This document shows positions 57,840-64,000 of a DNA stretch of 64,000 nucleotides, piece after piece. The notes beneath the pieces are model-generated. The model was not told the origin of the DNA and ran no database searches. It saw nothing but the letters and a program-made list of their open reading frames with translations. Source of the stretch: Escherichia coli (lineage in GTDB: Bacteria > Pseudomonadota > Gammaproteobacteria > Enterobacterales > Enterobacteriaceae); NCBI RefSeq assembly GCF_003790525.1, contig NZ_CP033635.1. One strand, given 5' to 3'. Each line of letters starts with the position of its first letter. Within the stretch, counting starts at the first letter, position 1. The position numbers and the translations under genes were made by a program.

Positions 57840-58056
57840 TAACGCTACGCCTGTAAGGCGCACTGGCAGTTCCCTCTCCCCTCTGGGGAGGATCTATTGA
57901 TATCAACTGATTTCAACAGAGCTAACCCCTCCCCCTTTAACCCCCTTTGAAATAAGATATCATCAGAAATTCCTTTTCTCTGGGGGTCAATCATATTCCA
58001 TGAACATCAAGATGATTTTGGGGGCTATTCTGGGGGCTACATTTCAGGGGTAACTC

Positions 58057-59250
58057 ATGCCACTTACTGTTCGACAAATTGAGTCGGCTAAACCTGCTGA
58101 CAAGGATTACAAACTTTCTGACGGTCAGGGCCTTTATCTTCTTGTCAAAAAATCCGGTGCCCGTTACTGGAATCTGAAGTACCGGTTTGCCGGTAAGGAA
58201 AAGAAACTGGTGATTGGTGTCTATCCTGACATATCACTGGCTCAGGCTCGTCAGAAGCGGGATGAAGCACGTAAACTTCTGGCTGAAGGTAAAGATCCGT
58301 CGTATGAAAAACAGGCGCGAAAACTTGCCATCAGGGAAAGTATGGCCTGCACATTTCGCACCATTGCAGAGGAGCTGCTTACTCATATGGCACGTCGATG
58401 GACAACAGGTTACCAGGCAGACCAGCGTGCAAGACTTGAAAATCATGTTTTCCCTGCTCTTGGAAACCGTCCTGTGACCGGGATCCGCCCCATGGAAATA
58501 CTGAACGTCCTGAGGACTATAGAAGAACAGGGAAAACTTGAAGCACTGCGTAAAACACGCCAGCTCTGTGCGCAGGTTTTTGATTATGCCATAGCAACAG
58601 GGCGTGCAACCGTTAATCCGGCATCGACACTCAGCGGGGTACTGCTTCCTCCTGAAAAACAACAGCGCAGGACGCTTTCTGAAGAACAGATAGGAGCTTT
58701 CATGTATCAGATAACGGCTTCCGGAAATCTGATGTCGCTGGCAACGCGGATGCTGGTTCTGACCGCTGTTCGCACCGGAGAACTGCGACTGGCAACCTGG
58801 GACGAAATTAATTTCACGGAGGCCCTGTGGGTTATTCCGAAAGAAAGAATGAAAATGCGACGACCGCACGTTGTGCCGCTTTCACGGCAGGTACTGGCGT
58901 TACTGGAGGAGATAAAAACACGCACTGAATCGCGTAATTCCGCCTTTATTATTCCTGGTGCATTCAGAAAAGATCTCCCGCGAAACCGCAAGTGTATCAA
59001 TGAATTCCTTGAGCAGTCAGGCTGGCATGCCCTGACAACAGCCCACGGATTTCGTCATACCTTCAGCACCATTCTCCATGACCATGATTTCAGCTCAGCC
59101 TGGATTGAACTCCAGCTTGCTCATGTTGATAAAAACGTCATGCGTGGCACTTATAACCATGCGCAATATCTGGATGGACGTCGTGAAATGATGCAGTGGT
59201 ACGCTGATTACATTGATTCACTTATGGAGAAAAACGTAAAAACGAAATAA
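58057..59250 (+). CDS. Tyrosine recombinase, P4 / CP4-57-type integrase
   Basis: 397 aa; N-terminus (AKPADKDYKLSDGQGLYLLVK...YWNLKYRF) typical of P4-family integrases; C-terminal catalytic region HGFRHTF...LAH...Y. Confidence 0.9.
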   Translation: MPLTVRQIESAKPADKDYKLSDGQGLYLLVKKSGARYWNLKYRFAGKEKKLVIGVYPDISLAQARQKRDEARKLLAEGKDPSYEKQARKLAIRESMACTFRTIAEELLTHMARRWTTGYQADQRARLENHVFPALGNRPVTGIRPMEILNVLRTIEEQGKLEALRKTRQLCAQVFDYAIATGRATVNPASTLSGVLLPPEKQQRRTLSEEQIGAFMYQITASGNLMSLATRMLVLTAVRTGELRLATWDEINFTEALWVIPKERMKMRRPHVVPLSRQVLALLEEIKTRTESRNSAFIIPGAFRKDLPRNRKCINEFLEQSGWHALTTAHGFRHTFSTILHDHDFSSAWIELQLAHVDKNVMRGTYNHAQYLDGRREMMQWYADYIDSLMEKNVKTK

Positions 59251-59616
59251 GCCATCACCCCCACCAACCACAGCGGTTGGTGGGGAGTTAACTACCATTT
59301 GTATTTTTTGATTTCTGCCTTCAGGCGACATACTCAATATCATCTGATGAGCGAAGATACCCCACCCAAAATGATGGTAGCTTCACATCGTCATTTTCAT
59401 ATAGCAGCACACTGCTGTTCTGACCTCGTAGTCACATTTCTACAGCATCATTACCAGTCAGGCTGATTGCTCCTCATTGAAAGAATGAATCCATGACTAA
59501 CACAAAAATAGCTCTGGCCGGCTGTTACCGGTGTGAGAAGAAACTTGATACAAACTGCCGTGGGCTTTATTCTTGGAGAACTATAAGTTTTTCCAGATTT
59601 ACAACAGATTCAGCAT

Positions 59617-60672
59617 ATGAACAGATTACGCTTTGAAGTGAAGAATAATCAGGGCTGCTTCATTTTCCCGGAAACCTGGTATGAATCACTACTGGAGAAG
59701 TTTAACGAACTGCTTGACTCCTTTGACGAGGATGAGATCAGCGACAGGTCTTATATCAATGCCCTGAAGCGTATCACACAACAGGAACCGGATTTTATTG
59801 ATGCGTATGCATACATGGCATATGCCTTTCTGGAGCAGGAGACACCGCGAAAAGCGCTGAATATTGCACTCAAAGGACTGGCGGCAGGTAACCGACTGAT
59901 ACCTGAAGGTTTCACCGGTGAAATCAGCTGGTTACATCCGGAAAACAGGCCCTTTCTGAATGCCCTTTACGCCGCCATCCTCGCGAATGTGCACCTGCAG
60001 CATCATCAGAATGCTGTCATGCTCATTGATAAAATTCTGGCTTACAATCCTTCAGATAATCCGGGAGCACGCTGGTTACTGGGACCGGAACTGTTGCGTT
60101 CTGGTGACCATGAACGGGCTCTCTGTGTTCTCCGGCAGTATGCAGATGAATTTTCGCCTTACTGGTATGAGCTTGGTCTTCTGCATTTTATTAATGGAGA
60201 GCCGGTGAAGGCAGCGACAGCTTTCCGGCGCGGCTTTGCAGAAAATACTTATATCGCGGAGATTCTATGCGGAAATCTGTACCCCTTCCCGCTTGCCCTT
60301 TGGCATGATTATTCATCTGAGCCGGATACAGCCAGACAGTATTATGAAACATTCTGCCCGTTATGGGGAAAATATCCCGAGGCATTGTTATTTGTTAACT
60401 GGCTCTACAACCAGTCTGGCGTACTGAGCGAACGGGCTGAATTCATGAAGTGTGCTGAAATGCTGTTAAGGGCAGATGATCAGGAAATGAATGAAAGCAT
60501 TTTTCAGCAGCGGGAGCTCTTACGGGAAAGAATTGATGATCGTCTTTCTGAGGAAATCGTTCAGAAATTACGGACATTGAACGGGGAGGAGATCTGGCCC
60601 TGGATGTTACCGTTTTCCGGAGAACTGATCCCCGCAGACATTTGCTTTCAGAACAGTCTGAAATATCAGTAA
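59617..60672 (+). CDS. Hypothetical protein, apparently helical-repeat; unknown function
   Basis: 351-aa ORF immediately after the integrase; Leu/Ala/Tyr/Trp-rich, no TM segments or signal peptide; I do not recognise the family. Confidence 0.5.
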   Translation: MNRLRFEVKNNQGCFIFPETWYESLLEKFNELLDSFDEDEISDRSYINALKRITQQEPDFIDAYAYMAYAFLEQETPRKALNIALKGLAAGNRLIPEGFTGEISWLHPENRPFLNALYAAILANVHLQHHQNAVMLIDKILAYNPSDNPGARWLLGPELLRSGDHERALCVLRQYADEFSPYWYELGLLHFINGEPVKAATAFRRGFAENTYIAEILCGNLYPFPLALWHDYSSEPDTARQYYETFCPLWGKYPEALLFVNWLYNQSGVLSERAEFMKCAEMLLRADDQEMNESIFQQRELLRERIDDRLSEEIVQKLRTLNGEEIWPWMLPFSGELIPADICFQNSLKYQ

Positions 60673-60773
60673 TATCTGCACCAGGATGCCATTCCGGGGT
60701 CAGTAAGGATCTTCCCCCTGACCTGGACAAATGTAATGAAACTCAGCTAAGCCCCAGAAGAGCAGGCATATAG

Positions 60774-62746: not shown

Positions 62747-63100
62747 TCAATTCAGTTCTGTAAGACGATCGATTATTTTACGTAGTTCATCTGCAGAATC
62801 ACATGTATCCAGTGAAATTTTTATTCTAAAATTCTTTAACCAATTAGCAGCCTCCTGATCTTCACGCCATAAACGCTCCCCGCTCCAATCCCCCCTAAAA
62901 CATAGAGCAGCAATAGCCAATCCTCTGCATGCTGGCCGATTATGCTCAGATGTATTATTTTGGTTATAAAAATCGTTAATTCTTTCTACCGGAGATGATT
63001 TTATTTTATCCCACACATTGAAATTAGCTTTTTTCATCGTTTCAGCAGCAGCATTAGAAGCAAGCTTACCGAATCCCATTATAGCATCCCAAAATCCCAT
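62747..63100 (-). CDS. Hypothetical protein (117 aa)
   Basis: ORF on the same strand as its neighbours in the island; no recognisable motifs. Confidence 0.4.
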   Translation of the reverse strand: MGFWDAIMGFGKLASNAAAETMKKANFNVWDKIKSSPVERINDFYNQNNTSEHNRPACRGLAIAALCFRGDWSGERLWREDQEAANWLKNFRIKISLDTCDSADELRKIIDRLTELN

Positions 63101-63136
63101 ATATCACCTTATGCTATATAATATCTAAATGAGTAT

Positions 63137-63226
63137 CTAATCTTTTAGAACCACTATTTGGACAATGGTTTTACGCCACTTACATCTGGTACAAATGAAT
63201 GTAACCGGGGGCTGAGGAAGTGCCAT
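63137..63226 (-). pseudogene. Truncated paralog of the zinc-ribbon gene (29-aa ORF)
   Basis: Translation MALPQPPVTFICTRCKWRKTIVQIVVLKD aligns with MIFPCPPITFICTNCQWSKTIIHMN of the 62465-62686 gene (about 14 of 25 identical); second CxxC pair missing. Confidence 0.5.
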
Positions 63227-63312
63227 GAAGGTACGTGTCTGTTGTATTAAACTATCAAATCAGACCACACGCTGCGATTTTGAATTTAACAACGTGTAGT
63301 CAGATATTACAT

Positions 63313-64000
63313 TCAGAAGCTGTATGTAGCACCTAACGTAAATTCGTTACTTCTGACATCAACAGAGGATTTATATGTATCCTGCCCGTCTTCATACGTC
63401 AGGGTTGAATCACCTGCATCAAGATAGCGATAAGCAAGGTCAAGACTGAAATCCGGGGTGACCTCATATTTCACGCCAACACCAAGGCTCCATGCGAAAT
63501 TGTTATCATATCCCGAGTAATGTAATGAAGAAGCATCACTTACTTCACCTGATTTATTCCAGGAGGTATCGGTGTATGTTGCCTTATGATGTACCCGCGC
63601 ATAACCCAGTCCGGCTGATACCCACGGAGTGAAAGCACTGCTGTTTCTGAAATCATAATACGTGTTCACCATCAGGGTATTCACGCTGAGCCTGTTTTGT
63701 GTGTCTTCCTTCCAACCATTATCTCCAGACGGGGACTCCCATGTATCCAGTGGATAGCGGGAATTCGCAGAGCCGCGACCATAGAATTCAACTTCCGTGC
63801 GTACAGGGACATTGTAGTGCTGATAAAAGTCGTATCCCACCGCAAGGCCAGCACCAAAAACCGTATCGCTCTTGTCACCGCCTTTATACTTATAAACATC
63901 ATCCCCAAAGTCCTGACTAAAGCGCTGATTATCCTGAGTGATAACAGATGCACCAGCCTTACCCGTGATATAGAAACCGGTTTTATCCGCATCTGCCAGC
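63313..64000 (-). CDS. Outer-membrane beta-barrel protein, N-terminus beyond the window end
   Basis: C-terminus ...TLGATYSF (terminal aromatic); alternating aromatic/polar pattern; reading frame stays open upstream of the 63840 GTG to base 64000. Confidence 0.6.
   Translation of the reverse strand, partial: LADADKTGFYITGKAGASVITQDNQRFSQDFGDDVYKYKGGDKSDTVFGAGLAVGYDFYQHYNVPVRTEVEFYGRGSANSRYPLDTWESPSGDNGWKEDTQNRLSVNTLMVNTYYDFRNSSAFTPWVSAGLGYARVHHKATYTDTSWNKSGEVSDASSLHYSGYDNNFAWSLGVGVKYEVTPDFSLDLAYRYLDAGDSTLTYEDGQDTYKSSVDVRSNEFTLGATYSF

Follow-up and report, generated by a model that had tools for sequence, protein, structure and literature searches.

The insertion sites of papGII-positive islands of uropathogenic Escherichia coli constitute the closest described system to the element studied here. 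Passages of Biggel et al. (2020; PMC7686366) and Royer et al. (2021; PMC8097792) give glnH-glnP and ulaD-ulaE as sites of these islands, which carry an integrase at the island edge; the sites are named by their flanking genes and the integrases are termed 'insertion-site-specific', and the relevant passages describe neither an attachment sequence, nor BoxC repeats, nor the use of multiple sites. In this work, we analyzed a 64-kb stretch of E. coli DNA (contig NZ_CP033635.1; hereafter the window, meaning the whole 64,000 nucleotides), which ends within a genomic island located at the same glnH-glnP site. Our results indicate that the end of the window is very probably the left end of a 40.2-kb island inserted by its own P4-like tyrosine integrase, encoded by the gene here called int, at a BoxC hairpin of the form CTCCCC-NNN-GGGGAG. 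The ST131-type integrases of the gln site are 91-94% nucleotide-identical to int and the conserved right end is common to both kinds of island; however, the papGII islands carry the pap operon, whereas the island studied here lacks it and has metabolic cargo. An island at glnH-glnP is not new, as the kind is known and the site published, and it is the use of BoxC as an attachment site at many loci that appears to be an undescribed variant.

Islands with P4-like integrases at tRNA genes, such as CP4-6, CP4-44, CP4-57 and those at pheV, pheU, selC and leuX, share the three-domain integrase architecture of int, and CP4-like islands have in common with the window island a backbone of YeeU/CbtA, RadC, antirestriction, DUF932, GTPase and AlpA-type regulator/excisionase genes. 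Integrases about 50-55% identical to int are found at tRNA-Phe, Arg, SeC, Gly, Thr and Ser genes. These islands use the 3' end of a tRNA gene and one or few sites, whereas the window island uses a dispersed intergenic repeat with many sites per genome. The insertion sequences (IS) IS1397, ISKpn1 and IS621, which are small and encode DDE or DEDD transposases, target REP/BIME palindromes; as with the window island, the target is the loop of a palindromic repeat scattered in many copies between genes, where insertion is safe, but the BoxC islands measure 40-116 kb and use a tyrosine recombinase with likely arm-type sites. The integrase of Shiga toxin (Stx) phage Phi24B also uses more than one chromosomal site in E. 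coli, one primary and a few secondary, for which no shared repeat family was reported (PMC7581858), whereas the BoxC islands occupy sites of one repeat family, or a mimic of its core, with no primary site evident.

The BoxC repeat, also known as PIT or TMECO (Bachellier; Maher; Holder et al., 2015, PMC4666352), is a G/C-rich three-block repeat of 34-37 nt catalogued in K-12, for which triplex formation in vitro has been published (PMC4666352). The surroundings of these repeats display raised sequence variability, for which a structure-induced instability of unclear mechanism was proposed, and integrases or transposases were never found adjoining them (PMC4666352); in contrast, we found integrase islands inside them. 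Literature searches linking BoxC or TMECO with integrases found nothing, most subscription journals being outside the search, so that this absence is no proof.

The last 7 kb of the window match the chromosome of E. coli 23CRST013 (NZ_AP045773.1, reverse strand) at 100% identity, and in this chromosome the island extends over 40,226 bp, from 1800823 down to 1760598. A previous reading of the window alone, the original prediction, had described an integrase-led accessory island starting directly after a complete glnH, with a P4-type integrase about 217 bp downstream followed by uncharacterized genes and IS debris, and with glnP and glnQ missing; it proposed that the island had either replaced or displaced glnPQ, or that a rearrangement or assembly junction was present. 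The description was borne out: glnH, the first gene of the glnHPQ operon and the chromosomal left flank of the island, is complete in both the open reading frame (ORF) list and the RefSeq annotation, the gap from its stop codon to the int start at 58057 is 217 bp, the genes that follow are annotated as shown in Table 1, and glnP and glnQ are absent from the 64-kb window. The border of the foreign DNA, however, is at 57890/57891 and not at 57840, as island-free genomes of a spread sample align up to base 57890, and int starts 166 bp from this junction. Extension beyond position 64,000 reached the far end of the island, and full-length glnP (660 bp), glnQ (723 bp) and ybiO directly past it, 40.2 kb away, an arrangement that the original prediction had itself named as contradicting it. 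With direct repeats on both flanks and glnPQ directly beyond, the island represents a simple site-specific intergenic insertion, in which the gln operon was split and not lost and the assembly is sound; thus, glnPQ were displaced, and the proposal of their replacement fails.

Both junctions could be delimited to the nucleotide. A 14-bp core direct repeat, TCCCCTCTGGGGAG, has its attL copy in the window and its attR copy at NZ_AP045773.1 1760584-1760597, outside the window and just upstream of glnP. With a slash marking the junction, attL reads ...CTCTCCCCTCTGGGGAG/GATCTATTG (longer read, ...GCAGTTCCCTCTCCCCTCTGGGGAG/GATCTATTGATATC...) and attR reads ...TTTCACCAT/TCCCCTCTGGGGAGAGGATTAGGGTGAGGGG (longer read, ...GAGAATTTTCACCAT/TCCCCTCTGGGGAGAGGATTAGGGTGAGGGGCG...); joined, they restore the empty glnH-glnP site of K-12, ...CTCTCCCCTATGGGGAGAGGATTAGGGTGAGGGG (longer read of the uninterrupted spacer, ...GCAGTTCCCTCTCCCCTATGGGGAGAGGATTAGGGTGAGGGGCG...), with zero bases lost. 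The palindrome at the left junction, CTCCCC-TCT-GGGGAG at 57876-57890, occurs a single time in the window, with 0.00 occurrences expected by chance. The identical left junction was found in three independent complete genomes and one metagenome contig; further, an integrase is present at this spot in 18 of 5426 complete E. coli genomes (at least 80% coverage of the junction query), and related islands are located at glnH-glnP in about 15 more genomes. The island has the marks of a site-specific genomic island: repeats on its flanks, strains in which its site is empty, an integrase at its edge and a part with a G+C content down to 32-38% (61.2-63.2 kb of the window). ARAGORN detected neither tRNA nor tmRNA genes over the 64 kb, and so none beside the integrase, in agreement with the original prediction; Rfam at gathering thresholds gave no match in 56000-64000, and a generic repeat search of 57800-64000 gave short chance-like matches and the palindrome beside the core.

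The product of int, WP_001131672.1, displays the three-domain architecture of the P4-like (DUF4102 / Arm-DNA-bind_3) integrases, as had been proposed, with Pfam matches to Arm-DNA-bind_3 (PF13356, 4.6e-28, residues 3-87), Phage_int_M (PF22022, 3.7e-28, residues 100-194) and Phage_integrase (PF00589, 9.2e-20, residues 207-371), and a match to PHROG 1 integrase (3e-63). The R...H-x-x-R...H/W...Y residues of a tyrosine recombinase are in place (R239, H330, R333, H356 and Y366) and the catalytic lysine is probably in KERMK (262-266), so the enzyme looks catalytically complete. It scored 269.6 bits against NCBIfam NF007246 (PRK09692 integrase), below the cut-off of 434, being related but not a member. 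It also departs from the usual habit of its family, which is insertion at the 3' end of a tRNA or tmRNA gene; the tRNA gene is missing because the attachment site is the hairpin of a BoxC repeat instead.

The glnH-glnP sequence interrupted by the island is a copy of BoxC, as revealed by comparison of the K-12 spacer, TTCCCTCTCCCCTATGGGGAGAGGATTAGGGTGAGGGG, with the table of PMC4666352: it displays the blocks CCCTCNCCC(C), a loop, (G)GGGAGAGGG, TTA/CCG and GGGTGAGGG(G), although it is a variant off the consensus and outside the published list of 23, whereas the copies at ycjD and gcvP are listed. The crossover core corresponds to the apical palindrome, CTCCCC-NNN-GGGGAG. A BLAST search with a 61-nt query spanning the glnH copy detected a median of 15 BoxC places per E. 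coli genome, and in K-12 about 13 BoxC copies possess the right core, to which the glnH and ulaE sites are added; additional copies are present in other strains.

Nine complete genomes carry the integrase region at a nucleotide identity of at least 98.8%, and all nine could be placed; six different BoxC copies are occupied among them, namely glnH-glnP (23CRST013, Br_112_kylling and GF60), ycjD-fabI (PK-F-10122 and 135), gcvP-ygfF (TUM9803), lptG-yjgR (CM2), yhfS-frlR (GPEC1040) and zntA-tusA (HCM-27C-1). Identical proteins are shared among sites, WP_001131672.1 being found at glnH, ycjD and lptG, and WP_072648864.1 at gcvP, ycjD and zntA. All left junctions have the sequence (G)GTCCCCTCNCCCC-NNN-GGGGAG/GATCTATTGATATC, the left arm at zntA ending in TCC instead of CCC. 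Right junctions were sought with a chimeric query that combined the island right end with K-12 right flanks, which recovered those by fabI, ygfF, glnP and ulaD, and the right ends beside yjgR, frlR and tusA were read directly; at all six BoxC sites, and likewise at ulaD, the sequence is ...TTTCACCAT/TCCCC-NNN-GGGGAGAGGGTTAGGGTGAGGGG followed by the expected neighbor gene. Island sizes range from 40 kb, that of the window, to about 116 kb; the ycjD-site island of PK-F-10122 was traced for 50 kb, its end not being reached by that route. A seventh BoxC site, with int directly after gabD-gabT, is present on a metagenome contig, whose integrase differs by two residues. Relatives at 84% and 80% nucleotide identity lie between ulaD and ulaE, within the first ulaE codons, where the target is not BoxC but a look-alike palindrome, CTCCCCGGCGGGGAG. 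The ycjD-fabI and gcvP-ygfF copies are numbers 9 and 11 of the TMECO table (Holder et al., 2015, PMC4666352). BoxC is missing from lptG-yjgR and gabT-gabP in K-12, so strain-variable copies are used too, and the absence of BoxC at two used sites indicates that copies are gained and lost between strains. The yhfS-frlR and zntA-tusA copies we take to be numbers 15 and 16 of the same table, by their coordinates and the K-12 map.

Some of these spacers showed further features. The K-12 gcvP-ygfF spacer (3,045,989-3,046,087) contains two facing BoxC copies, and the TUM9803 island uses only the one with CCCC-TTT-GGGGAG, the other being CCC-TTTCA-GGG. In place of BoxC, the K-12 gabT-gabP spacer holds what look like REP-type palindromes. 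At the ulaE site of PKF11, the attL loop is GCC, versus GGC in K-12, in the attR of the same strain and in two other ulaE-site islands; this loop reads as its own reverse complement, as might be expected after a hairpin template switch.

Both island ends carry a second conserved element. The tandem motif TGGGGGCTATTCTGGGGGCTA is placed 18 bp ahead of the int start codon, with a right-end copy about 80 bp inside the island, and the corresponding pattern occurs exactly once in each of the 17 E. coli island-end loci fetched (10 left and 7 right, the 80% lineage included) and in 0 of 86 other fetched loci; in the window, the 9-mer of the motif occurs at this place alone. As int carries an N-terminal arm-binding domain, the tandem motifs are likely arm-type binding sites for that domain. 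The stretch TATCAACTGATTT at 57901-57913 agrees with 12 of 13 positions of the integration host factor (IHF) consensus, WATCAANNNNTTR, and may serve as a lead to an IHF site. In the mechanism we propose, the catalytic domain would bind the two inverted GGGGAG arms as core sites, strands would be exchanged across the hairpin loop, and the arm domain would bind the tandem TGGGGGCTA motifs near both island ends. The BoxC copies that BLAST can detect number about 15 per genome and are scattered, so that a single integrase could insert the island at numerous positions of the chromosome. In E. coli, every BoxC insertion faces the same way with respect to the third block, which fits an asymmetric loop (TNT) setting the direction of insertion. 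Whereas the junctions, the direct repeat, the empty sites, the conserved ends, the occupancy of several sites by identical proteins and the clade structure are observed, the bases contacted, the position of the cut and the present activity of the enzyme we infer.

This target preference follows the integrase phylogeny. Relatives at up to 55% identity were drawn from a search in which each species was represented by a single genome; in 46 of the 56 scanned, a tRNA gene of the Phe, Arg, SeC, Gly, Thr, Ser or Asn type lies about 170-400 bp upstream, and a BoxC half-site was found in 0 of 80 loci. A protein search gave integrases at 62-78% identity in Enterobacter asburiae, E. kobei, E. ludwigii, Lelliottia and Serratia fonticola, and these adjoin BoxC hairpins, e.g., CCCTCACCCCAACCCTCTCCC-ACA-GGGAG/island, with the repeat in the opposite orientation; a single identical E. 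ludwigii protein is present at three sites (after acs, after nrdD and a third one). No tRNA gene stands beside the examined relatives at 56-99% identity, including those at 56-59% from Salmonella, Citrobacter and Budvicia, of which the first two lie beside another G+C-rich palindrome and the Budvicia junction is not clearly delimited. Some relatives carry AlpA and primase genes beside the integrase gene. In a neighbor-joining tree, the BoxC-associated integrases form one clade, apart from the tRNA-associated ones. We lean slightly towards the view that the BoxC/TMECO hairpin has taken the place of tRNA genes as the target of a clade of P4-like tyrosine integrases across Enterobacterales. Separately, in an Enterobacterales contig (JAYRCK010000010.1; 1-1180 of the fetched locus), an IS110-family transposase gene abuts a truncated BoxC/att junction of a related island, and a second kind of mobile element may be aimed at the same repeat.

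Alternative explanations of the junction itself carry almost no weight. An assembly error or a strain-specific rearrangement, with glnPQ lost or moved elsewhere for unrelated reasons, could be suspected from a window that ends inside the island, and rearrangements of these islands do occur, as the two junctions in Br_112_kylling, 1.6 Mb apart on opposite strands, attest; nevertheless, the recurrence of the same left junction in independent genomes and a metagenome contig, the precise right junction adjoining an intact glnP, the integrase at this spot in the 18 genomes and the listing of glnH-glnP as an island site in passages of PMC7686366 and PMC8097792 leave this a negligible probability. 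A deletion of glnPQ accompanying the insertion is equally far-fetched: it would explain a window without these genes, but glnP, glnQ and ybiO stand at full length just past attR and the junctions rebuild the K-12 spacer without loss. Considerably less extreme, yet still highly improbable, is the proposal that the islands were moved between sites not by int but by homologous recombination involving different BoxC copies, or by replacement through IS elements or transduction, in which case adjacency to BoxC would be a by-product of this repeat being fragile and recombinogenic. The variability and structure-induced instability reported near TMECOs (PMC4666352) and the many IS fragments on the islands agree with it; against it, all junctions coincide to the nucleotide and share one orientation, conserved island ends bear paired arm-type motifs, a non-BoxC palindrome with the same core is also used at ulaE, and the trait follows the integrase phylogeny across genera. 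Moreover, attP shares with BoxC only the 13-14 bp core, which is too short for RecA and typical of a tyrosine recombinase, and the conserved synteny on both flanks argues against islands moved together with flanking DNA by large chromosomal recombination.

Improbable, in our judgment, is also that the integrase reads an extruded BoxC hairpin, cruciform or intrastrand triplex, as integron integrases do with folded attC sites. The perfect palindrome, the single-stranded fold of BoxC (a 9-bp stem, -9.8 kcal/mol) and the published triplex formation in vitro (PMC4666352) would suit such a recognition, as would the targets of the 56-59% relatives, which are G+C-rich hairpins of different sequences. 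Against this, the reconstructed attP forms only a 5-bp stem, no better than shuffles (z = +0.44), and the BoxC fold is not significantly above shuffles either (z = -1.4); we set the structure-recognition model aside as unnecessary, since none of attB, attL, attR and attP folds significantly better than shuffled sequence. The fixed orientation per lineage fits an asymmetric overlap in duplex DNA. Duplex-acting tyrosine recombinases bind inverted core sites, and palindromic cores are normal for them.

Several observations weigh against insertion by the island's own integrase at BoxC, or against its extension to a clade. The right-end genes DUF4942 and DUF5983 are frameshifted in the 23CRST013 copy, which may be decaying or immobile, and an exact search for the excised circular attP junction in metagenome and viral contigs found none. 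Only nine genomes carry near-identical integrases, a poor sample for judging how often each site is used; the neighbor-joining tree has no support values and one of its sequences is a fragment. Finally, the loop differs between attL and attR at lptG (TTT/TAT), yhfS (TTT/TCT) and ulaE (GCC/GGC); with TTT at yhfS and GGC at ulaE in K-12, the attB-type loop is at attL in the former and at attR in the latter. These differences would fit a heteroduplex overlap spanning the loop, and they do not locate the cuts.

The features of the region are listed in Table 1. Int and cargo genes occupy one end of the island, and a block of GTPase, DUF932, antirestriction, RadC, YeeU/CbtA and DUF4942 genes the other, so that by its gene content the backbone classes as CP4-like or pathogenicity-island-like. 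Between the two end modules lies a gene for a 77-aa AlpA-family protein (PF05930, 1.5e-10; PHROG 'excisionase and transcriptional regulator'). AlpA-family proteins are the usual excisionase/regulator partners of P4-like integrases. The cargo is metabolic, including 3-hydroxybutyrate/CoA-transferase genes and phosphotransferase systems (PTS) for alpha-glucosides and sucrose. The annotation of the whole 40-kb island contains no pap operon, only a PapB/FocB-family regulator gene, so this is not a papGII island; nor does it contain relaxase, coupling protein or type IV secretion genes that would denote an integrative and conjugative element (ICE), as judged from annotation only, no dedicated profile search having been run. 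A P4-type satellite prophage is not indicated either, with AlpA-like and 'inovirus Gp2 family' genes only, versus the primase/helicase (alpha), capsid-size and late-control genes of such elements.

Table 1. Annotated and candidate features around the left end of the island (positions in the window; the slash marks the island junction).
Feature	Position	Strand	Basis
glnH, complete, 248 aa	57093..57839	+	ORF list; GlnH WP_000843866.1 annotated in NZ_AP045773.1
Left half of chromosomal BoxC at attL, TTCCCTCTCCCCTCTGGGGAG	57870..57890		K-12 empty site; published BoxC/TMECO table
attL copy of 14-bp core direct repeat	57877..57890		Left and right junction sequences
First 6.1 kb of genomic island	57891..64000	+	Comparison with NZ_AP045773.1
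Island left arm, crossover core to int	57891..58056	+	Same or near-same sequence after GGGGAG/ at eight sites
Tandem motif, candidate arm-type sites	58019..58039	+	Pattern TGGGGGCTAYNYTGGGGGCTA at island ends
int, 397-aa P4-like tyrosine integrase	58057..59250	+	Pfam, PHROG, catalytic residues
351-aa tetratricopeptide-repeat (TPR) protein gene	59617..60672	+	ORF; RefSeq; weak TPR-type NCBIfam matches
ISAs1-family transposase fragment	60774-61154	-	RefSeq annotation
Second transposase fragment, pseudogene	61282-61392	+	RefSeq annotation
EcsC-family protein gene	61717..62373	-	RefSeq annotation
Hypothetical 116-117 aa protein gene	62747..63100	-	ORF; RefSeq
Outer-membrane beta-barrel protein gene, 5' end outside window	63312..64000	-	RefSeq annotation

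Neither the EcsC-family protein nor the hypothetical protein encoded downstream of it in the window had an NCBIfam or PHROG match, and the outer-membrane gene is a 750-bp coding sequence that extends 61 bp past the window end. Between the EcsC-family and hypothetical genes, we observed a 73-aa ORF (62465-62686, minus strand) with no RefSeq annotation and no NCBIfam match, whose two CxxC pairs (CTNC ... CPVC) make it look like a zinc ribbon. In Br_112_kylling (NZ_CP182371.1), the left junction is near 2,568,757 (minus strand) and the glnP right junction at 4,195,304-4,195,757 (plus strand), which implies a large chromosomal inversion with one endpoint within the glnH-glnP island. In the ycjD-fabI island of PK-F-10122, of about 76 kb, the common backbone bears a very different set of cargo genes, namely sitA, fecIR, a cluster for inositol catabolism, ter genes for tellurite resistance, and sul1 together with a truncated intI1; thus, antibiotic- and metal-resistance modules travel on a BoxC-targeting element. 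The 23CRST013 chromosome also has, between rhlE and dinG and beyond the limits of the window, a toxin-antitoxin gene pair with a PaaA2-family antitoxin and a ParE/RelE toxin (NZ_AP045773.1 1745788-1746509).

The insertion leaves glnH 40 kb from glnPQ, whose transcription would need an island-internal or cryptic promoter. The terminal island genes are directed toward glnP, and read-through from them into glnP is possible; simple promoter and terminator scans found no sigma-70-like promoter at either island junction and are uninformative on glnPQ expression. Several of the sites are inside operons, and insertion may be polar on genes for glutamine, gamma-aminobutyrate (GABA) and ascorbate utilization.

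BoxC repeats, known since the 1990s without an assigned function, gain with these findings a role as attachment sites for integrase islands. A change of specificity is thereby outlined, in which members of a single integrase family moved from tRNA targets present in one copy to a repeat present in many, and the cataloguing of hotspots is affected, as the gln, ula, fabI and gcvP sites become cases of one attachment-site family in E. coli and Enterobacter. Furthermore, multi-copy chromosomal integration in enterobacteria could make use of an integrase to which each genome offers about 15 natural landing pads. If a clade of these integrases has indeed adopted the BoxC hairpin, each BoxC copy would be a potential landing pad, operon interiors included (glnH/PQ, gabDT/P and ulaABCD/EF), and part of the unexplained 'genomic instability' reported at BoxC repeats would have a concrete mechanism.

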